Shown here: positions 2,338-8,384 of the stretch, in pieces | Numbering within the stretch: position 1 is the first letter of the stretch | Layout: each line of letters begins with the position of its first letter | DNA from: a virus | Lineage: Duplodnaviria; Heunggongvirae; Uroviricota; Caudoviricetes | Direction: 5' to 3' (one strand) | IMG/VR virus record: IMGVR_UViG_2671181100_000003 | Location: 1-11,754 of that record | DNA length: 11,754 bases | Program-made: the position numbers and the translations under genes | Notes under the pieces: model-generated | Seen by the model: only the letters and a program-made list of their open reading frames with translations | What the model was told of the DNA's origin: nothing | Database searches by the model: none

Positions 2338-2385
2338 TTTGCTGCTCCTCATCATATCGACCCTGCAAGGTCGGTTAGTTTCTCC

Positions 2386-2666
2386 ACAAAACAGAGAAGA
2401 ACACCTGCGGTGACTGCCGCCCGGATGGATTGGGTTATGAGCCCGTCGTCCGGTGATGCTCTTCTCTGTTTTGTAAAAAGGACGGTACCAGCCGGAAGCA
2501 AGGGTACAAGCTGGTACCGCCAAGACTACACACAGCATAAAGTTGTGGTGCCGGGTGCCTCCCGGTGCCTGGCGAAGGTTGCACACCAGGCGGGTGGGTA
2601 TCCACAGAAGGTCGACTGTCAGCCTCAACCTTAACCCGCGTGCGCTGAGCCGCATTCACCACAACG
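2386..2666. other. GC-rich non-coding stretch with nested perfect inverted repeats (candidate structured leader RNA or regulatory element of the leftward early operon)
   Basis: Perfect inverted repeats: 15 bp (2386-2400 ACAAAACAGAGAAGA / 2460-2474), 10 bp (2483-2492 CGGTACCAGC / 2510-2519), 9 bp (2542-2550 GTTGTGGTG / 2657-2665), 7 bp (2575-2581 / 2627-2633), plus short GC hairpins at 2551-2565 and 2567-2591. ORFs open in several frames here encode P/G/R-rich, non-protein-like sequence. Confidence 0.3.
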
Positions 2667-2806
2667 CTAAGGATTCTCTCTGGTTGAAAATACTTAGCTG
2701 TTATGTGCCTGCTTTTAGCCACATCAGGCGAGGTGGACCTAGTTATTCCCCAACAACAAGGATTCGGTTAATCTGGATATCCCCAACAACAATAAGAGTA
2801 TTCAAT

Positions 2807-3322
2807 GTGATCGCTGAATTAACGGCAGCAATGACGGCTATTCGTGAAATCGCCCAGATTGCAAAACTAATGAACGAGGCAAAAACTCAAGCTGAAGTAA
2901 ATGCGGCTATTGGTGAGCTGAACTCAAAGCTTGCGTCTATTCAGCGCGAATGCGTGTCTCTCGTTGAACTGCTGGGCTCTTATCAAGAAATAAATGCTTC
3001 TCTCAAAGCTAAAATTGCAGAATTCGAAAACTTTGAGGCTCAGACGGAAGGCTATATCCTTAACCAACTTGAGTCGGGTACTTTTGTATACTCGAAGGAG
3101 GTAATCGTGAACGGTGACAGCATAACCATGCATCTTTGCCCAAAATGTTTTGGACAAAAGATAGTATCGATACTTCAACCATTCCCGGTTAGCGAAGATG
3201 AGCTTTTTCATAAAAGCAGGTGCCTCCACTGTGAAAATAAGTTTCTGATGAATAAAAATCCAGATTACGTATCGCCTCCATCCATTGAGGAGTTGGCCAG
3301 AAAACTTAACGGCAATCTGTAG
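2807..3322 (+). CDS. Coiled-coil protein with C-terminal CxxC...CxxC zinc-ribbon (accessory gene in the immunity region, function unknown)
   Basis: ORF-track frame 2543..3322 trimmed to GTG 2807 (AAGAG 8 nt upstream) or ATG 2831. The N-terminal ~80 aa are heptad-like and A/E/K/L-rich; the C-terminus carries CPKCF and CLHCENK ~24 aa apart. GC is ~42% against ~52-55% in the replication genes. Convergent with the repressor, own terminator downstream. Confidence 0.55.
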   Translation: MIAELTAAMTAIREIAQIAKLMNEAKTQAEVNAAIGELNSKLASIQRECVSLVELLGSYQEINASLKAKIAEFENFEAQTEGYILNQLESGTFVYSKEVIVNGDSITMHLCPKCFGQKIVSILQPFPVSEDELFHKSRCLHCENKFLMNKNPDYVSPPSIEELARKLNGNL

Positions 3323-3347
3323 ATTGCTACTGTTGTGGATATCCAGA

Positions 3348-3360
3348 TTGTTAAAGAGCG
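3348..3360 (-). promoter_or_regulatory. boxA-like element (minus-strand CGCTCTTTAACAA), candidate nut-type antitermination site
   Basis: Minus-strand 13-mer CGCTCTTTAACAA matches the boxA consensus (rrn boxA TGCTCTTTAACAA; lambda nut boxA CGCTCTTA...) as I recall it. It is flanked by hairpins at 3362-3378 and 3312-3327 and lies downstream of a candidate leftward promoter at 3468-3496. Confidence 0.35.
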
Positions 3361-3361
3361 A

Positions 3362-3384
3362 AGCGTCCTGTAGGGCGCTTTTTT
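3362..3384 (+). terminator. Rho-independent terminator of the coiled-coil/zinc-ribbon gene
   Basis: Stem AGCGTCC / GGGCGCT (7 bp, one G-U) with loop TGTA, followed by TTTTTT at 3379-3384, ~40 nt after the stop codon at 3320-3322. Confidence 0.5.
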
Positions 3385-3465
3385 GTTGCTAACGAATCAT
3401 CCTGGACTTCATATGCCCCAGGCGGCTACTTCGTGGGCGTCCTGCCTGTTCGTTATCTTTGATAT

Positions 3466-3553
3466 AAAATCTAACTTAACTTAGCTATTATGGCAAGAGA
3501 AAACACCAAACTTTTCTTAGTTCGGTGCCTTAGTTAGAGAAGAGAGGTCTTAG
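3466..3553 (-). promoter_or_regulatory. Candidate left operator/promoter (OL/PL-like): leftward promoter flanked by CTTAG half-sites
   Basis: On the minus strand: -35 TTGCCA (plus 3491-3496), 17-bp spacer, -10 TAGATT (plus 3468-3473). CTTAG occurs four times within 3480-3553 (3480, 3516, 3529, 3549), the same pentamer that forms the operators between the repressor and cro. Confidence 0.3.
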
Positions 3554-4176
3554 AGTTCGTATTGAACTCCTTTGACTACACCAATGATAAGGCAATTACC
3601 ATTGATAGGGATGTTGGGATACCGAGGATTTAATGGCACTAAAAACTTTTGAGGGCCATCGATGACTAATTTTTTTACTGTAGCTTCGTTTGTTCCATCA
3701 AGTCGAGCGATGACTATTTTTCCATGACGAGGTTCTGCATCTGGATCTACAATCACTGTTGCGCCTTCTGGTATTGTTGGGAGGCCATTAGGGTTAGTCA
3801 TGGAGTCACCTTTAACCTCTAATGCAAATGAGTTATCACCAACCTTTAATGATGTATCTACCCACTTGTCCACTTCACTAAACACTTCTGCTGCCCTGCA
3901 CTCAGTAAACTGCCCAGCCTGAACCCACGATATTACAGGAACTCTGCGCATGTTTGTGACGAGTTTGCCTTCAAACTCAGCACCATAAAGAATGTAATCT
4001 ATTGACGTATTGAAGAACTTCGCTAATTTCGAAAGTGCCTCCCCACCAGGGGTATTGATGTCTTTCTCCCAGTACCCCACAGCAACGTCGCTTACTCCAC
4101 AAAATTTACCCAATTCTTTCTGGGACGTTCTGGTAACTCTTCTCAGAGCTTTTATACGCTGACCAACCGTTTCCAT
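3550..4176 (-). CDS. Phage repressor, cI/LexA-type (N-terminal HTH + C-terminal S24 autopeptidase domain)
   Basis: 208 aa. N-terminal HTH (QKELGKFCGVSDVAVGYWEKD), candidate Ala-Gly cleavage site (VQAGQF), S24 catalytic motif GDSM and Lys in TVKKL. Divergent from a cro-like gene across an operator region. Confidence 0.9.
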   Translation of the reverse strand: METVGQRIKALRRVTRTSQKELGKFCGVSDVAVGYWEKDINTPGGEALSKLAKFFNTSIDYILYGAEFEGKLVTNMRRVPVISWVQAGQFTECRAAEVFSEVDKWVDTSLKVGDNSFALEVKGDSMTNPNGLPTIPEGATVIVDPDAEPRHGKIVIARLDGTNEATVKKLVIDGPQKFLVPLNPRYPNIPINGNCLIIGVVKGVQYEL

Positions 4177-4195
4177 AGGAGCACCATTTCTTTAA

Positions 4196-4266
4196 TTGCT
4201 AAGTAATCTTAGTTTTTATTGACCAAAGATAGATTTGTAATTAGCATCTAACAAAACTTAGTTTGG
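4196..4266. promoter_or_regulatory. OR-like operator/promoter region between repressor and cro
   Basis: Inverted half-sites CTAAG-TAAT-CTTAG (4199-4212), perfect palindrome AAACTTAGTTT (4254-4264), CTTAGTTT repeated at 4208 and 4257. Rightward promoter candidate -35 TTGACC (4219-4224), 17-bp spacer, -10 TAGCAT (4242-4247), upstream of the cro ATG at 4274. Confidence 0.5.
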
Positions 4267-4273
4267 AGAGCGT

Positions 4274-4474
4274 ATGACAACTGACGATATCGAAAGCTAC
4301 TTCGGCAGTATTGAGAAAGTTGCTGCTTTTTTCGGCATAACAACTGAAGCCGTTTATCAGTGGCGAAACCGTCCGGGCCAGTTAATTCCAAAAGGACGTG
4401 CAGCAGAAGCTGCATATAGAACTTGCGGACGGTTGCCATTTAAACCTGAGCTTTATGAAAAATCTAATGGATAA
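4274..4474 (+). CDS. cro: Cro-type repressor (P22 Cro-like)
   Basis: 66 aa; DIESYFGSIEKVAAFFGITTEAVYQW resembles P22 Cro (DVIDHFGTQRAVAKALGISDAAVSQW). Divergent from the repressor; GGAGAG upstream. Confidence 0.8.
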   Translation: MTTDDIESYFGSIEKVAAFFGITTEAVYQWRNRPGQLIPKGRAAEAAYRTCGRLPFKPELYEKSNG

Positions 4475-5063
4475 ATCGATTAACAGAAACCACAGAACGA
4501 TGAGGCTAACCGTGGGTAAGCATCACTGGAAAGTAGAAAAACAGCCTGAGTGGTACGTGAAAGCTGTCAGAAAAACTATCGCAGCGTTGCCGGGTGGTTA
4601 CGCTGAAGCTGCTGACTGGCTGGATGTAACAGAGAACGCATTATTTAACCGCCTTCGTGCCGATGGCGATCAGATTTTCCCGCTGGGATGGGCAATGATT
4701 TTGCAACGTGCTGGTGGAACTCACTTCATTGCTGACGCTGTGGCGCAGTCTGCAAATGGCGTCTTTGTGTCTCTTCCTGATGTCGAGGATGTGGACAACG
4801 CCGATATCAACCAACGCCTGCTGGAAGTCATTGAACAGATCGGCAGTTATTCAAAACAGATTCGTTCAGCAATTGAAGACGGTGTAGTGGAACCGCATGA
4901 GAAGACAGCAATTAACGATGAGCTGTACCTCTCAATTTCGAAGCTGCAGGAGCATGCAGCACTGGTCTACAAAATCTTTTGCGTTTCAGAAAGTAGTGAC
5001 GCCCGCGAGTGTGCAGCTCCGGGCGCCGTGGCGTGTCGTGACTGTGGAGAAACTAACGCATGA
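4455..5063 (+). CDS. CII-position early regulatory protein (CII/CP76-like by position; start uncertain)
   Basis: ORF-track frame 4398..5063. The GTG at 4398 has no usable SD spacing and overlaps cro by 77 nt; ATG 4455 or ATG 4467 (overlapping the cro stop) are likelier starts. About 200 aa, first gene after cro. Family assignment is by position and vague recollection only. Confidence 0.45.
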
Positions 5064-5398
5064 ACAGTTTAACAACACACTACCGTCGCTCGCAACTGAT
5101 TGCGCTTCCTGTACCGGGTGGAAAAGCGAAGGTGGAGTATTGCTATGCAGTAAATGTACCAGGTGACAGGGAAATTGTAACCCACAGCTTTGCAGAGTGG
5201 GCTGTGGGTGATTTCAACCGGCAGAAGGAGACAGTCCTTTGCGACAAGTTAACCGCTGGTTCAAAGATCACTACGGAGTGCCCGTCAGAGTCATTCGTTG
5301 GGAGCCGGAAACACAACGTGTTATCTACCTCCGCGAAGGCTATGAGCATGAGTGCTTCAGCCCGCTCGAACAGTTTCGTCGTAAATTCAGGGAAATAG
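5060..5398 (+). CDS. Hypothetical protein (112 aa as called); only the N-terminal ~55 aa look protein-like, possible frameshifted or overlapping gene
   Basis: ATGA overlap with the preceding stop (5060-5063). The N-terminal part ([52 protein letters not shown]) looks coding; the C-terminal ~50 aa are S/A-rich low complexity and overlap a better-looking frame (see 5239..5418). Confidence 0.3.
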
Positions 5399-5418
5399 AG
5401 GTCGGTCATGAGCACTAA
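5239..5418 (+). CDS. Small hypothetical protein (59 aa) from a TTG start; alternatively the C-terminal half of a frameshifted gene starting at 5060
   Basis: Not in the ORF track (no ATG). AAGGAG at 5225-5230, 8 nt before TTG 5239. Translation [59 protein letters not shown] is compositionally protein-like. Stop at 5416-5418 overlaps the O-like start. Confidence 0.3.
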
Positions 5419-6364
5419 ATTAACCGGCTATGTATGGGATGGTTGCGCTGCATCAGGCATGAAATTATCCAGCGTGGCAATTATGGCCCGCCTGGCTGAT
5501 TTCAGTAATGACGAAGGTGTGTGCTGGCCATCAATTGAAACCATTGCCCGCCAGATTGGCGCGGGGATGAGTACCGTCAGAACGGCTATCGCACGGCTGG
5601 AAGCAGAAGGCTGGTTAACGCGTAGGGCGCGTCGCCAGGGTAACCGCAATGCGTCGAATGTTTATCAGCTTAACGTTGCGAAGCTTCAGGCAGCGGCATT
5701 TTCTCAACTGTCAGATTCTGACCCGTCAAAATCTGACGCATCAAAATCTGACGCATCAAAATCTGACCCGTCAAAATTTGATGCGTCGAAATCTGGCAAA
5801 AAAGCGGGTTTTCACCCGTCAGAATCTGGTGGGGATCCGTCAGTAAAATCAAAACATGATCCGTCAGATAAAAAAACTTCTCGTCCGGACGCTTCGCAAC
5901 CGGACACGCAGACGGCTGAACAGGATTTTTTAACTCGCCATCCTGATGCGGTTGTATTCAGCCCTAAAAAGCGCCAGTGGGGGACGCAGGATGATTTGAC
6001 CTGCGCACAGTGGCTCTGGAAAAAAATCATCGCCCTGTACGAGCATGCCGCCGAATGTGACGGCGAGGTGGTTCGTCCCAAAGAACCGAACTGGACAGCC
6101 TGGGCAAACGAAATTCGCCTGATGTGTGTGCAGGATGGTCGTACTCATAAACAAATCTGCGAGATGTACAGCCGCGTCAGTCGCGATCCGTTCTGGTGCC
6201 GTAACGTGCTCAGCCCGTCGAAGCTGCGGGAAAAATGGGATGAGCTTTCCCTGCGCTTATCGCCGTCCGTCAGCACGTACACCGAAAAACGCGAAGACCC
6301 GTACTTCAAAGCCAGTTACGACAACGTGGACTACAGCCAGATCCCGGCAGGATTCAGGGGGTGA
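5408..6364 (+). CDS. Replication initiator, lambda O-like (N-terminal HTH DNA-binding domain, repeat linker, C-terminal domain)
   Basis: 318 aa, GAGGT 5 nt upstream. N-terminal HTH (SSVAIMARLADFSNDEGVCWPSIETIARQIGAGMSTVRTAIARLEAEGWL) is typical of phage replication initiators. An internal tandem-repeat block encodes (S/P)KSDA pentapeptides, like the iteron-encoded linker of lambda O. Position after cro/CII. Confidence 0.7.
   Translation: MSTKLTGYVWDGCAASGMKLSSVAIMARLADFSNDEGVCWPSIETIARQIGAGMSTVRTAIARLEAEGWLTRRARRQGNRNASNVYQLNVAKLQAAAFSQLSDSDPSKSDASKSDASKSDPSKFDASKSGKKAGFHPSESGGDPSVKSKHDPSDKKTSRPDASQPDTQTAEQDFLTRHPDAVVFSPKKRQWGTQDDLTCAQWLWKKIIALYEHAAECDGEVVRPKEPNWTAWANEIRLMCVQDGRTHKQICEMYSRVSRDPFWCRNVLSPSKLREKWDELSLRLSPSVSTYTEKREDPYFKASYDNVDYSQIPAGFRG
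5711..5800. repeat. Six tandem 15-bp repeats inside the O-like gene: candidate replication-origin iterons
   Basis: Units TCAGATTCTGACCCG / TCAAAATCTGACGCA (x2) / TCAAAATCTGACCCG / TCAAAATTTGATGCG / TCGAAATCTGGCAAA. Each junction forms the dyad CGTCA-AAATC-TGACG. Degenerate copies and an A-rich stretch follow to ~5880. Confidence 0.5.
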
Positions 6365-6366
6365 TC

Positions 6367-6855
6367 ATGAGTCTTTTGAATGACGTTCAGAAATTCATTG
6401 AAGCCCATCCGGGGTGTACTTCCGGAGACATTGCGGATGCTTTTGCAGGTTACTCACGACAGCGCGTTCTGCAGTCAGCAAGCAAGTTACGTCAGAGTGG
6501 GCGTGTGGCTCACCGTTGTGAAGGGGATACACGCAGACATTTCCCGCGGCTGACTGAGATACCGCAGGAGCCGGAACCGCAACCAGTTCGTGAATCCAGA
6601 CCTGTGCGCAATTTCTATGTCGGCACTAACGATCCCCGGGTGATTTTGTGCCTGACCCGCCAGGCGGAAGAACTGGAGTCCAGGGGCTTATACCGTCGTG
6701 CTGCAACGGTGTGGATGGCGGCATTCCGTGAAAGCCACTCCCAGCAAGAGCGAAACAATTTTCTTGCGCGTCGTGAGCGGTGTTTACGGAAAAGCAGCAA
6801 GCGCGCTGTATCGGGTGAAGAGTGGTATCTGTCAGGGAATTACGTGGGGGCTTAA
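6367..6855 (+). CDS. Putative transcriptional regulator: N-terminal winged-helix-like region plus PerC-like C-terminal motif
   Basis: ORF-track frame 6361..6855 trimmed to ATG 6367 (GGGGG 5 nt upstream, overlapping the O-like stop). The C-terminal motif AEELESRGLYRRAATVWMAAF resembles the PerC/Pch activator signature as I recall it. The size (162-164 aa) matches my recollection of YfdN. Confidence 0.55.
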   Translation: MSLLNDVQKFIEAHPGCTSGDIADAFAGYSRQRVLQSASKLRQSGRVAHRCEGDTRRHFPRLTEIPQEPEPQPVRESRPVRNFYVGTNDPRVILCLTRQAEELESRGLYRRAATVWMAAFRESHSQQERNNFLARRERCLRKSSKRAVSGEEWYLSGNYVGA

Positions 6856-7181
6856 TGACGACGTTAACTCAATGCCAGCAGCAGGTGCTGGATATGCTGA
6901 TTTCTTATCAGAAAGAACGTGGCTTCCCGCCAACCAATCAGGAGGTGGCAACCATGCTGGGATACCGTTCAGTGAATGCAGCGGTGGAGCATCTTCGCGC
7001 ACTGGAGAAAAAAGGCGTCATCACGATAAAGCGTGGCGTGGCCCGGGGCATCACGCTTCATACCGCGGTGAAGGACGACGACAGCGAGGCGGCCGGGATT
7101 ATCCGCGCACTGCTTGCTGGTGAGGAAAACGCCAGGCTGCGTGCAGCCCACTGGTTACATGAGAGGGGCCTGAAAGTATGA
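6855..7181 (+). CDS. LexA DNA-binding-domain-like protein lacking the S24 peptidase domain
   Basis: ORF-track frame trimmed to ATG 6855 (TAATG overlap with the upstream stop; GGGGG upstream). LTQCQQQVLDMLISYQKERGFPPTNQEVATMLGYRSVNAAVEHLRALEKKGVITIKRGVARGITL aligns by eye with the LexA N-terminus ([65 protein letters not shown]). The 108-aa product stops before any protease domain. Confidence 0.75.
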   Translation: MTTLTQCQQQVLDMLISYQKERGFPPTNQEVATMLGYRSVNAAVEHLRALEKKGVITIKRGVARGITLHTAVKDDDSEAAGIIRALLAGEENARLRAAHWLHERGLKV

Positions 7182-7567
7182 AGCTGATCCTGCCTTTTCC
7201 GCCCAGCGTGAACACGCACTGGCGACACCCCAACAAAGGGGCGTTTGCTGGTAAGAGCCTGATAAGCGCGGCGGGGCGAAAATTCCAGAGCGCGGCGTGC
7301 GCAGCAATAGTTGAGCAGTTACGTCGTCTGCCAAAACCAACGTCGGCACCTGCTTCAGTGGAGATCGTGTTGTTTCCTCCGGATAACCGGATCCGCGATC
7401 TGGACAACTATAACAAGGCGCTGTTTGACGCCCTGACCCACGCGGGTGTGTGGGAAGACGACAGTCAGGTGAAAAGAATGCTGGTGGAGTGGGGACCGGT
7501 TATCCCGGAAGGGAAGGTCGAGATCACTATCAGTAAGTACGAGAAACCGGCGGGTGCAGCCGCCTGA
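7178..7567 (+). CDS. rusA: RusA-family Holliday junction resolvase
   Basis: 129 aa with ATGA overlap to the upstream gene. Motifs LPFPPSVN, DLDNYNKALFDALT and GVWEDDSQV match the RusA family. Confidence 0.85.
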   Translation: MKLILPFPPSVNTHWRHPNKGAFAGKSLISAAGRKFQSAACAAIVEQLRRLPKPTSAPASVEIVLFPPDNRIRDLDNYNKALFDALTHAGVWEDDSQVKRMLVEWGPVIPEGKVEITISKYEKPAGAAA

Positions 7568-7586: not shown

Positions 7587-8384
7587 ATGAATAATCTGAT
7601 GGTTATTGATGGTATTGAAGTTCGTCGTGATGCTTATGGGCGTTACAGCCTGAACGATCTGCACAGGGCTGCCGGTTCTCTGGATAAACATAAGCCTGCA
7701 TTCTGGCTCCGCAATGAGCAAACTGAACGTTTAATAAGCGAGTTGCAGATTTGCAACTCGGTCAATATAGAGCCAGTTAACGTTATTCGTGGAGGAAATA
7801 ACCAGGGGACGTATGTCTGCAAAGAACTGGTGTATGCCTATGCAATGTGGATCAGCCCGTCATTCCATCTGAAGGTGATCCGTACTTTCGATATGGTAAC
7901 CAGCACACCGGAAAAATTATCCGGGCAGGCTGCTGACAAGATGCAGGCTGGCGTGATCCTGCTGGACTTTATGCGCCGGGAGTTAAACCTGTCTAACTCT
8001 TCAGTGCTTGGTGCCTGTCAGAAACTCCAGGAGGCTGTTGGCTTACCGAATCTGGCACCGCGCTATGCCATTGATGCTCCTGCTGACGCGCCTGATGGCT
8101 CAAGCCGCCCCACGCTGTCACTGAGTGCACTGCTGAAGCAGTATGGTATCCGCCTGACAGCTAATCAGGCATATCACCAGATGGTGAAGCTGGGGATCGT
8201 CGAGCAGCGCGAACGATACAGCCGTACCGCGATTAACAACATCAAAAAATTCTGGTCACTGACAGCGAAAGGCTGCATGTTCGGCAAGAACATCACCAGT
8301 CCCGCAAATCCGCGCGAGACGCAGCCGCATTTCTTCGAATCCCGATTCCCTGAGCTGTTAAAGCTGCTCGATACCGTTCATTGA
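7587..8384 (+). CDS. KilA-N domain protein (N-terminal KilA-N DNA-binding domain, uncharacterised C-terminal domain)
   Basis: 265 aa with strong RBS AAGAGGAGAAA. N-terminal YSLNDLHRAAG...KPAFWLRNEQTERLI...IRGGNNQGTYVCKELVYAYAMWISPSFHLKVIRTFD fits the KilA-N fold. Confidence 0.8.
   Translation: MNNLMVIDGIEVRRDAYGRYSLNDLHRAAGSLDKHKPAFWLRNEQTERLISELQICNSVNIEPVNVIRGGNNQGTYVCKELVYAYAMWISPSFHLKVIRTFDMVTSTPEKLSGQAADKMQAGVILLDFMRRELNLSNSSVLGACQKLQEAVGLPNLAPRYAIDAPADAPDGSSRPTLSLSALLKQYGIRLTANQAYHQMVKLGIVEQRERYSRTAINNIKKFWSLTAKGCMFGKNITSPANPRETQPHFFESRFPELLKLLDTVH

Follow-up and report, generated by a model that had tools for sequence, protein, structure and literature searches.

In phage lambda, the replication origin lies within the initiator gene O, where four 18-bp iterons with a spacing of 20–24 bp are followed by an A+T-rich region, and additional iterons lengthen the O protein in Stx phages (PMC7466680). 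Gene 18 of P22 holds four repeats of about 20 bp and that of phage L six imprecise 11-bp repeats; both sets have been read as origins from the sequence, and repeats inside gene-18/O-type genes are routinely taken as such (PMC8022706). P22 and phage L also have an adjacent gene for a DnaB-type helicase (gene 12). In iteron plasmids, the units are typically 17–22-bp direct, non-palindromic repeats that lie about two helical turns apart and are bound by Rep monomers, and in repABC plasmids oriV is found inside the initiator gene repC.

Here we describe a related element in a stretch of viral DNA of 11,754 nucleotides (hereafter the window). Judged from the sequence, positions 5711–5884 are probably the replication origin of a lambdoid prophage, of the lambda type and embedded in the initiator gene. 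The parts on which this reading draws are given below, with the strand where one applies.

5408–6364, plus strand: replication-initiator gene, 318 amino acids (open reading frame list and translation)
5408–5698, plus strand: winged-helix N-terminal domain, amino acids 1–97, presumed iteron reader (Pfam HTH_36 at amino acids 23–70, E = 4e-11)
5711–5785, no strand: iteron-like units 1–5, abutting, 15 bp each, with an 11-bp palindromic core TCARAWTYTGA and a 4-bp variable spacer
Start 5711: unit 1, TCAGATTCTGACCCG, encoding SDSDP
Start 5726: unit 2, TCAAAATCTGACGCA, encoding SKSDA
Start 5741: unit 3, TCAAAATCTGACGCA, encoding SKSDA
Start 5756: unit 4, TCAAAATCTGACCCG, encoding SKSDP
Start 5771: unit 5, TCAAAATTTGATGCG, encoding SKFDA
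5786–5800, no strand: unit 6, degenerate, TCGAAATCTGGCAAA, encoding SKSGK; in register, its core with two mismatches
5807–5884, no strand: block in which synonymous sites are frozen (median same-codon fraction 1.0), spanning codon offsets −7 to +18 relative to the GGDPS motif
5819–5829, no strand: isolated seventh core-like site, TCAGAATCTGG, 33 bp past the last tandem unit, one mismatch
5834–5848, no strand: first GATC-containing 15-mer, GATCCGTCAGTAAAA, a direct repeat
5842–5881, no strand: candidate DNA-unwinding element, A+T-rich (72% A+T), the least stable 40-mer of the gene in a nearest-neighbour stability scan
5858–5872, no strand: second GATC-containing 15-mer, GATCCGTCAGATAAA, 24 bp past the first
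5930–6253, plus strand: C-terminal domain, amino acids 175–282, homologous to the lambda O C-terminal domain

The gene sits in an early-right operon of the order cI, cro, cII-like gene, initiator, RusA and Q-type gene; on its 3' side follow a PerC-like gene (6361–6855) and then LexA-DBD, RusA, KilA-N and DUF968 genes. At the nucleotide level, it is 97% identical to the replication genes of phages SfIV, SfII, PhiR29 and Kati, and it is the full-length counterpart of the truncated gene beside yfdN in the CPS-53/KpLE1 element of E. coli K-12, where the copy is annotated without its N-terminus. A scan for promoter-like sites between 5300 and 6500 found none; over the same interval, three weak terminator-like hairpins appear on the minus strand.

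The preliminary description had placed the repeats in the linker-coding part of an O-like initiator gene. The domain scan, PHROG and BLASTP bear out this position, while the label “O-like” holds for one half of the protein only. The full length matches PHROG 391, “replication initiation O-like” (E = 2e-134), and BLASTP against lambda O gives E = 2e-26 with 30% identity over a 216-residue alignment. The latter begins at amino acid 70, although real similarity starts from about amino acid 175, and it contains the motifs WGT.EDLT, WAN[DE]IRLM, DGR.H and NVLSP.KLR.KW; the C-terminal domain thus has the homology to the P-interacting domain that marks the lambda O family. The N-terminus, on the other hand, is HTH_36, and Phage_rep_O (PF04492), the N-terminal mark of that family, is absent from the Pfam scan, which makes the protein a chimera. 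Weaker Pfam matches in the initiator are to GntR, MarR, DnaD_N and RepC-N (RP-C N-terminal, E = 0.0036). A sequence search against solved structures returned only marginal winged-helix matches (MarR and PaaX), and NCBIfam gave no significant match for the initiator. Some phage records use the label “primosomal protein I/DnaT”; this label reflects the similarity of a C-terminal tail of about 20 residues (E = 0.004 in a Rac-like relative).

The repeat itself is real and lies far above chance expectation. Tandem Repeats Finder detects one array at 5717–5795 (period 15, 5.3 copies, 85% matches) and no second one in the replication module, and a repeat search recovers copies in register every 15 bp from 5696/5701 to 5795 together with a separate copy at 5809–5828. 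This confirms the earlier claim of tandem 15-bp units at 5711–5800: six stand head-to-tail (codons 102–131 of 318), five of them with the core and the sixth degenerate. At lag 15, 62 of 75 positions match, against a mean of 33.6 and a maximum of 44 when the codons of the gene are shuffled 2000 times and the best of lags 6–30 is taken. The core TCARAWTYTGA occurs in 5711–5829 as five exact copies and one with a single mismatch, and the rest of the 11.7-kb window holds just one further single-mismatch match; the resulting count of seven was reached in none of 200 shuffles. In unit 1, the core is a perfect palindrome (TCAGA-T-TCTGA). Each junction had been said to form CGTCA-AAATC-TGACG. The dyad symmetry is real, but the exact 15-mer CGTCAAAATCTGACG is found once only (5723–5737); the other junctions deviate from it at the outer positions, and the robust dyad is the 11-bp TCA-RAWTY-TGA.

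Whether such a repeat is kept for the protein or for the DNA can be read from its codons. We compared 66 distinct homologues from many Enterobacterales genera, ranging from Escherichia to Proteus, Providencia, Yersinia and Pantoea, and took for every column the fraction of sequence pairs that use the same codon for the same residue. In the N-terminal domain, this fraction has a mean of 0.44 (91 columns) and a median of 0.40, with synonymous sites near saturation, whereas the 26 linker columns reach a mean of 0.92 and a median of 1.0 (Mann–Whitney, p = 5e-13); synonymous sites are nearly frozen from the repeats on, as far as about 5884. Among the 302 units pooled from these genes, the first serine is TCA in 272 of 280 cases, lysine is AAA in all 187 and the third-position serine is TCT in 214 of 235; GAA (61/61) and GTA (65/65) are fixed as well. 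The fifth codon of each unit, however, varies freely at all three positions. The corresponding weight table gives 1.1–2.0 bits for positions 1–11 and 0.4–1.2 bits for positions 12–15. Since codon 5 is free while synonymous sites elsewhere are fixed, the constraint tracks the 11-bp palindrome rather than the codon structure. On this comparison, the repeat region is old enough for saturation wherever it is unconstrained, and the codon pattern indicates selection at the level of the DNA, in excess of the needs of the protein. Part of the constraint may still be on the protein, as the SKSDA/P peptide repeat, which an in-frame period of 15 bp entails, is likewise conserved.

These data bear directly on a simpler view, in which the repeats are slippage-prone, low-complexity code for a flexible Ser/Asp/Lys/Pro linker and have no function as DNA. 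A period of exactly five codons, an S-K-S-D-A/P pentapeptide conserved across genera, a copy number that ranges from 3 to 9 units per gene and the slippage-like lack of one unit in most E. coli copies relative to the window would all fit. We nevertheless consider it very improbable: synonymous positions are near-invariant in the same 66 genes whose N-terminal domains are near saturation, the only codon per unit that varies freely is one that alters the amino acid, so that the palindrome rather than the peptide is constrained, and where relatives differ in the N-terminal domain, their repeats at this position are out of frame, with 22–24 bp each. An overlapping gene was rejected as the source of the constraint, as none of the alternative frames stays open across the block in every homologue. 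Frames +1, +2 and −0 are never free of stops, the most open one (−2) is stop-free in 29 of the 66, and the ATG of the window's 65-amino-acid +1 reading frame is found in only 31 of 70 genes checked.

A constraint on the mRNA, be it a secondary structure, a codon-based translational pause or an sRNA target in the linker-coding region, is the alternative to which we give the least credence of all. Neighbouring palindromic units are complementary to each other and could form long hairpins (for example, the arms 5735–5758 and 5764–5787, 83%), and several of the frozen codons, such as TCA and GTA, are infrequent. Yet it is the sequence itself that is kept, not pairing through compensatory changes, and the common codons AAA and GAA are frozen as strictly as the rare ones. 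Rfam yielded zero matches over the whole window at the gathering threshold, and the unrelated, out-of-frame arrays of the relatives suit recognition of DNA by a protein better than a shared RNA fold.

Downstream of the array, the conservation continues. The isolated seventh site (5819) is kept in all relatives examined, phiP27 and EKP1 included, and its codons TCA GAA TCT are invariant in 39–64 homologues. In the first GATC 15-mer, the codons GAT CCG TCA GTA are invariant in 56–66 of the 66 homologues, and the second 15-mer aligns with lambda ...ATTCGTCAGAGAAT..., which lies on the right-hand margin of the A+T-rich region there. An A-rich stretch past the repeats had been pointed out before. 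It is present, as an A6 run at 5798–5803 and as the 72% A+T 40-mer, but it is modest, since the latter ranks only 402nd in instability among the 11,715 40-mers of the window.

The array travels with one end of the protein. N-terminal domain and array occur together with at least four C-terminal types (lambda-O-like in 14, TIGR02220-like in 53, as well as the phiP27 and EKP1 types), and 362 of the 363 core matches in such genes fall inside the linker. C-terminal types were assigned by motifs, single-linkage clustering of the tails being uninformative as a shared terminal motif merged every type. Conversely, mEp460 and KY178 share the C-terminus at 97% nucleotide identity but have another N-terminal domain and, at the same place, other repeats: 4–5 copies of “CATCGGGTCAAAATG.CC” with a period of 23–24 bp, followed by an A-rich 12-bp repeat. 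As these are out of frame, they are unambiguously a DNA-level feature. Distant HTH_36 homologues (34–42% identity) have their own 22–23-bp arrays at the same gene position. Breakpoints of the mosaic lie immediately to the right of the conserved block (query 449–470, that is, window 5856–5877), and the upstream DUF4222 gene and the downstream PerC-like gene are found with both N-terminal/array types. From these gene comparisons, we conclude that the array is co-inherited with the N-terminal domain of the initiator, whichever C-terminal domain follows. In a Rac-like relative (L006), the conserved part of the unit is shifted to TTGACCCGTCAA, which makes the exact register of the putative binding site provisional. 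A link through this relative to the known oriJ of the E. coli K-12 Rac prophage was rejected, as K-12 ydaU encodes a DUF1376 protein of a different type.

Constraint and palindromes show that the duplex is read but leave its consequence to be argued. The array could be a cis-acting site other than an origin, such as an operator by which the initiator, or another phage or host protein, controls transcription across the gene, or a site for copy control, packaging or partition. Initiators that bind iterons, as in iteron plasmids, often autoregulate as well, and the conserved GATC pairs could be regulatory. We give this reading a small chance. The array varies in step with the N-terminal domain of the initiator itself and not with the flanking genes, its layout of repeats, A+T-rich tract and breakpoint copies that of ori-lambda, and an initiator needs an origin, for which the replication module offers no other repeat array; autoregulation, moreover, would be compatible with an origin function. 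What favors the origin is the combination expected of an ori-lambda-type element: at least four dyad repeats in mid-gene, an A+T-rich segment to their right, co-variation with the N-terminus and selection at the DNA level.

The likeness to ori-lambda within gene O, proposed earlier, is supported by the equivalent gene position (codons 117–145 of the 299-codon O, against codons 102–131 of 318 here), by the dyad-symmetric iterons in the linker-coding middle and by the low-stability segment after them, and both have a mosaic breakpoint just right of the origin. A gain of units that lengthens the protein is likewise a feature shared with the Stx phages. There are also differences. Lambda has Phage_rep_O where this protein has HTH_36, and four 18-bp iterons at a spacing of 20–24 bp where six 15-bp units with an 11-bp palindromic core abut here, so that the period is, as had been claimed, shorter than that of lambda. 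In addition, this period is in frame and yields a pentapeptide repeat, the A+T-rich segment is weaker and holds the two conserved GATC 15-mers, and no P gene follows the initiator.

Among the other systems, the genes 18 of P22 and phage L are similar in being distantly related O-type initiators, each with its own distinct set of in-gene repeats, but they differ in repeat sequence and N-terminal domain, and the window has no counterpart of their helicase gene. The mEp460 and KY178 initiators occupy the same operon position (in KY178 also with the same PerC-like gene next) and have an array of repeats as well as an A-rich tract in the corresponding part of the gene, yet their out-of-frame period is far nearer to the lambda geometry. 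With the iteron plasmids pPS10, F and R6K, the locus shares a winged-helix initiator, whose binding is presumed here, and tandem repeats beside an A+T-rich element. Unlike plasmid iterons, the units are palindromic and 15 bp apart rather than direct, non-palindromic repeats of 17–22 bp, and a site scan found no DnaA boxes within the initiator gene, in or near the array.

By analogy with lambda O and ori-lambda, the observed anatomy, constraint and co-inheritance suggest the following course of events. The initiator would be made from rightward early transcription (cro, cII-like gene, orf, initiator), and dimers of its HTH_36 winged helix would bind the TCARAWTYTGA cores, five of them good, one degenerate and one 33 bp downstream. 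The resulting nucleoprotein complex could then destabilize the adjacent conserved A+T-rich segment (about 5834–5881), after which the lambda-O-like C-terminal domain would recruit the replicative helicase. The latter is presumably supplied by the host DnaB–DnaC, because no phage P or DnaC gene follows the initiator in the window. Indeed, no gene for a P-type or other phage-encoded helicase loader adjoins it there, a further departure from the lambda O family, whereas some relatives do have replication partners (a DnaC-like protein in L006, DnaC and a helicase in phiP27, and a toprim protein in EKP1). The lack of a loader beside the gene, unlike in lambda (P), L006 and phiP27, makes the later steps of this model uncertain.

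The geometry invites a bolder proposal. Palindromes of 11 bp that abut every 15 bp are about 1.4 helical turns apart, and with this spacing successive initiator dimers would sit on nearly opposite faces of the helix. It is conceivable, though in our view unlikely, that such dimers line up in a straight coat like a filament instead of forming the wrapped O-some of lambda, that sites and linker are coupled and that, in this lineage, the lambda-O-like C-terminal domain loads host DnaB without a phage-encoded loader of the P or DnaC type. As the array is in frame, the gain or loss of a site also changes the protein linker by five residues; if the proposal is true, this coupling would tie the number of sites to the reach of the initiator.

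The element is widespread: of 5426 complete E. coli genomes, 1979 (about 36%) carry the array. Nonetheless, none of the 43 matching phage records annotates an origin, and we found no paper or database record that does so here, although an earlier description in the SfV or oriJ plasmid literature is possible. An origin goes unmentioned in the published account of the SfIV genome, and the initiator/array module falls outside the coverage of the Eru typing paper for Stx phages (PMC8044961). The array is thus an unannotated instance of a known and ordinary type of element, and it leaves the present view of replication initiation in lambdoid phages unchanged; the interpretation given in the preliminary description is supported, having held in every part that can be tested computationally. 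What is gained is the location, at base resolution, of a likely origin for a very common enterobacterial prophage family, to which the Shigella serotype-converting phages SfII and SfIV belong, as does the CPS-53/KpLE1 remnant of E. coli K-12. This may be of use in prophage annotation, in the design of compatible or incompatible phage-derived replicons and in reading copy-number polymorphism in the initiator gene. Finally, the locus offers a clean example of the same bases writing both a DNA element and a protein linker, and of “origin plus reader domain” cassettes that are exchanged modularly among initiators.

The repeats lie in an open reading frame of 318 amino acids (5408-6364), matched over its full length by PHROG 391, "replication initiation O-like" (E=2e-134). 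Pfam places an HTH_36 winged helix at residues 23-70 (E=4e-11), with weaker GntR, MarR, DnaD_N, and RepC-N matches, and finds no Phage_rep_O domain in the protein; the BLASTP similarity to lambda O (E=2e-26) is carried by the C-terminal domain (residues 175-282). The initiator is therefore chimeric, with an HTH_36 reader domain joined by a Ser/Asp/Lys/Pro linker to a C-terminal domain of the lambda-O type. Its surroundings are those of a lambdoid early-right operon:

3550-4176, minus strand: cI-like repressor
4274-4474: Cro
4398-5063: CP76/cII-like gene
5060-5398: small ORF directly before the initiator
6361-6855: PerC-like gene directly after the initiator
after the PerC-like gene: genes for a LexA-DBD protein, RusA, KilA-N, and DUF968

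The initiator gene is 97% identical to replication genes of the Shigella phages SfIV and SfII and of several E. coli phages, and matches a prophage of E. coli strain 1283 at 100% identity. The KilA-N gene opens with a short 9-bp tandem repeat (7597-7618, 2.3 copies of TGATGGTTAT).

The tandem 15-bp repeat proposed in the preliminary description is real. Tandem Repeats Finder reports one array (5717-5795, period 15, 5.3 copies), and a repeat search finds in-register copies at every 15 bp from ~5696 to 5800 and a separate copy at 5809-5828. In the register of the surrounding ORF, the units read as follows:

5711, unit 1: TCAGATTCTGACCCG, encoding SDSDP
5726, unit 2: TCAAAATCTGACGCA, encoding SKSDA
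5741, unit 3: TCAAAATCTGACGCA, encoding SKSDA
5756, unit 4: TCAAAATCTGACCCG, encoding SKSDP
5771, unit 5: TCAAAATTTGATGCG, encoding SKFDA
5786, unit 6: TCGAAATCTGGCAAA, encoding SKSGK

At lag 15 the array matches itself at 62 of 75 positions, whereas 2000 codon shuffles of the initiator gene, each scored at its best lag between 6 and 30, gave a mean of 33.6 and a maximum of 44. The core TCARAWTYTGA has five exact copies and one one-mismatch copy (5819) in the region and a single further one-mismatch match elsewhere in the 11.7-kb window, a count reached in none of 200 shuffles. The dyad claimed for each unit junction needs rewording: the perfect 15-mer CGTCAAAATCTGACG is present only once, and the dyad that holds up is that of the 11-bp core, which in unit 1 is perfectly palindromic (TCAGA-T-TCTGA). 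Likewise, the A-rich stretch said to follow the repeats exists but is modest, as 5842-5881 is 72% A+T and ranks 402nd among the 11,715 40-mers of the window. It is nonetheless the least stable 40-mer of the initiator gene, and it shares the block right of the array with the core site at 5819 and two GATC-containing 15-mers (5834, 5858). Between the tandem array and this seventh site, the minus strand carries a terminator-like hairpin (5805-5818, CGGGTGAAAACCCG followed by CTTTTTT), whose stem is weakly conserved among relatives.

Because 15 bp equal five codons, the window alone cannot separate a DNA element from a peptide linker. We therefore collected 80 loci, from one genome per species, that code for N-terminal-domain relatives; together with loci fetched earlier they gave 66 distinct usable full genes (Escherichia, Citrobacter, Kosakonia, Enterobacter, Kluyvera, Buttiauxella, Yersinia, Rahnella, Pantoea, Providencia, Proteus, and others). 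For each codon column, we determined how often sequence pairs sharing a residue also share its codon. Most columns of the N-terminal domain have values of 0.2-0.55, which is close to saturation (mean 0.44, 91 columns), whereas the block 5807-5884, from 7 codons before to 18 after the GGDPS motif, has a mean of 0.92 and a median of 1.0 (Mann-Whitney p=5e-13). Here codon usage is almost fixed: TTT 64/64, GAA 61/61, GAT 66/66, CCG 65/66, TCA 56/56, GTA 65/65, and AAA 43/43. The same holds for 302 pooled repeat units (Ser1 TCA 272/280, Lys AAA 187/187, Ser3 TCT 214/235), except that unit codon 5 is free at all three positions and changes its amino acid (GCA, CCG, GCG, GGG, ACA, ACG, and others). 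In the weight table, positions 1-11 (TCARAWTYTGA) are information-rich and positions 12-15 low. The constraint therefore tracks the 11-bp palindrome rather than the codon structure, and the segment has had time to diverge wherever it is unconstrained.

These results rule out a purely protein-level explanation. An overlapping gene is an unlikely cause, since no other frame stays open across the block in every homologue, and so is a known RNA family, as there is no Rfam match; no promoter-like site was found either. The GATC (Dam) sites at 5834-5837 and 5858-5861, inside conserved 15-mers (GATCCRTCAGWAAAA), vary little or not at all among the 66 homologues. A phage N6-adenine methyltransferase gene stands directly after or near the initiator in many relatives (fetched loci L002, L004, L005, and L007; K-12 yfdM) but is absent there in the window and SfIV. 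Methylation control of initiation through these sites is possible.

Across mosaic relatives, the array is co-inherited with the N-terminal domain. E. coli Nissle has query 1-449 (window 5408-5856) in common at 80% identity and then a TIGR02220-type C-terminal domain; among the surveyed genes, 14 have a lambda-O-type and 53 a TIGR02220-like C-terminus. phiP27 L17 and the Elizabethkingia phage EKP1 each have yet another C-terminus, and both retain TCAGAWTCTGA units. In the surveyed genes, 362 of 363 core matches fall within the linker. mEp460 and E. coli KY178 share the flanking genes and the C-terminal half (97% nucleotide identity from window ~5868) but have a different N-terminal domain, and their array at the corresponding position consists of 4-5 copies of CATCGGGTCAAAATG.CC with a period of 23-24 bp (L003 2849-3007; L007 2341-2498), with three A-rich 12-bp repeats behind it. 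Since this period does not keep the reading frame, the array must be a DNA feature; it has the look of a second candidate type of origin, a lambda-like one. DUF4222 and PerC-like flanking genes occur with both array types and are thus not specific readers; the candidate reader would most simply be the initiator's own N-terminal domain.

Distant HTH_36 homologues (34-42% identity; Phlomobacter, Thorsellia, a MAG contig) bear arrays of their own immediately behind the domain, with repeats spaced 22-23 bp. The contig, binned to a Nitrososphaerota MAG (L085 1808-1889), has three copies of ATTCCCGACCGGCAGAATCTGCCGGT in the linker, with starts 33 and 23 bp apart and the CAGAATCTG centre in common with the enterobacterial core; this contig may be bacterial or viral and mis-binned. 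A Rac-like prophage (L006 2365-2531, in a racR-ydaS-ydaT setting) keeps the 15-bp period at ~60% N-terminal identity, with the constant/variable pattern reversed relative to the window: its variable part is A-rich and its constant part is TTGACCCGTCAA, so the recognition register within the unit stays provisional. K-12 Rac itself (L092) has a ydaU of the different, DUF1376 type. The K-12 CPS-53/KpLE1 gene beside yfdN is an N-terminally truncated form of the window's intact gene. This remnant (L008 2502-3209) has kept array, conserved block, and C-terminal domain and lost the first ~78 codons, i.e., the reader domain, a loss that would leave an orphan candidate origin without its cognate binding domain.

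The proposed likeness to ori-lambda holds for placement. The lambda O gene (299 codons) has four 18-bp iterons at codons 117-145, with starts 20, 24, and 23 bp apart and an A+T-rich region right after them (PMC7466680); in the window, the units span codons 102-131 of 318, and the conserved block with its low-stability segment comes next. O binds the lambda iteron, an imperfect inverted repeat of 19 bp, and unwinding takes place in the A+T-rich tract (PMC7466680). The 15-bp period is indeed shorter, giving ~1.4 turns per site versus roughly two in lambda. Gene 18 of P22 has four ~20-bp repeats and that of phage L six 11-bp repeats, both inferred origins (PMC8022706).

In the alignment, the lambda counterpart of the second GATC 15-mer (5858) is ...ATTCGTCAGAGAAT..., on the right margin of lambda's A+T-rich region, the point from which all these initiator genes are homologous; as this is coding sequence for homologous proteins, the likeness is not independent evidence. 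Lambda sequence right of that region (L091 655-700, TTCGTCAGAGAATTCTGGCGAATCC) also resembles CCGTCAGAATCTGGTGGGGATCC and GATCCGTCAGATAAA of the window (5819-5880), and the iteron core of window-type initiators looks like lambda's right-hand ori palindrome. The likeness may reflect either shared ancestry of origin parts or merely protein homology.

On top of the observed anatomy, DNA-level constraint, and co-inheritance of array and reader domain, a mechanism can be proposed. HTH_36-domain dimers would bind the palindromic cores, the packed complex would promote melting of 5834-5881, and the lambda-O-type C-terminal domain would bring in the helicase. Neighbouring dimers, 15 bp apart, would sit on nearly opposite helix faces, which may yield a higher-order complex different from lambda's. 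No P, DnaC, or DnaB gene follows the initiator in the window (6361-7567: PerC-like, LexA-DBD, RusA), whereas relatives sharing the N-terminal domain and array or the C-terminal domain have the following genes after theirs:

L006 (Rac-like prophage), 3008-3748: DnaC-like ATPase gene
L089 (phiP27), 3208-5113: DnaC-like and helicase genes
L090 (EKP1), from 2657: toprim protein gene

The helicase partner is likely host DnaB-DnaC, although this is speculation. Matches of 8 of 9 positions to the DnaA box TTATCCACA number eight in the window versus 2.5 expected (0/200 shuffles reach 8); they lie in 2380-5051 and 7679-7854, and none is inside the initiator gene.

Repeat number varies among related prophages, with 3-9 in-register units per gene across genera (mode 4). 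Of 5426 complete E. coli genomes, 1979 contain the 251-bp segment, most of them by far as a 236-bp version that is one unit shorter; ~90 records with a match of >=95% fit the six-unit allele of the window, and a 206-bp version occurs in one of the genomes sampled. None of 43 matching phage records annotates an origin or binding feature at the segment, the SfIV genome paper does not mention an origin, and an incomplete coverage of the literature on yfdO/ydaU, the SfII/SfIV replication origin, and lambdoid initiator-gene iterons yielded no description.

The array region is a real, strongly constrained cis element. Its DNA-level constraint, its co-inheritance with the reader domain, and its ori-lambda-like layout support the origin reading of the repeats, and we consider it very probable that the region is the phage's replication origin. 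The element is very probably a previously unannotated case of a well-known kind, an origin embedded in an O-type initiator gene, and is unusual in its repeat geometry, in being coded in frame, and in lacking a loader gene.
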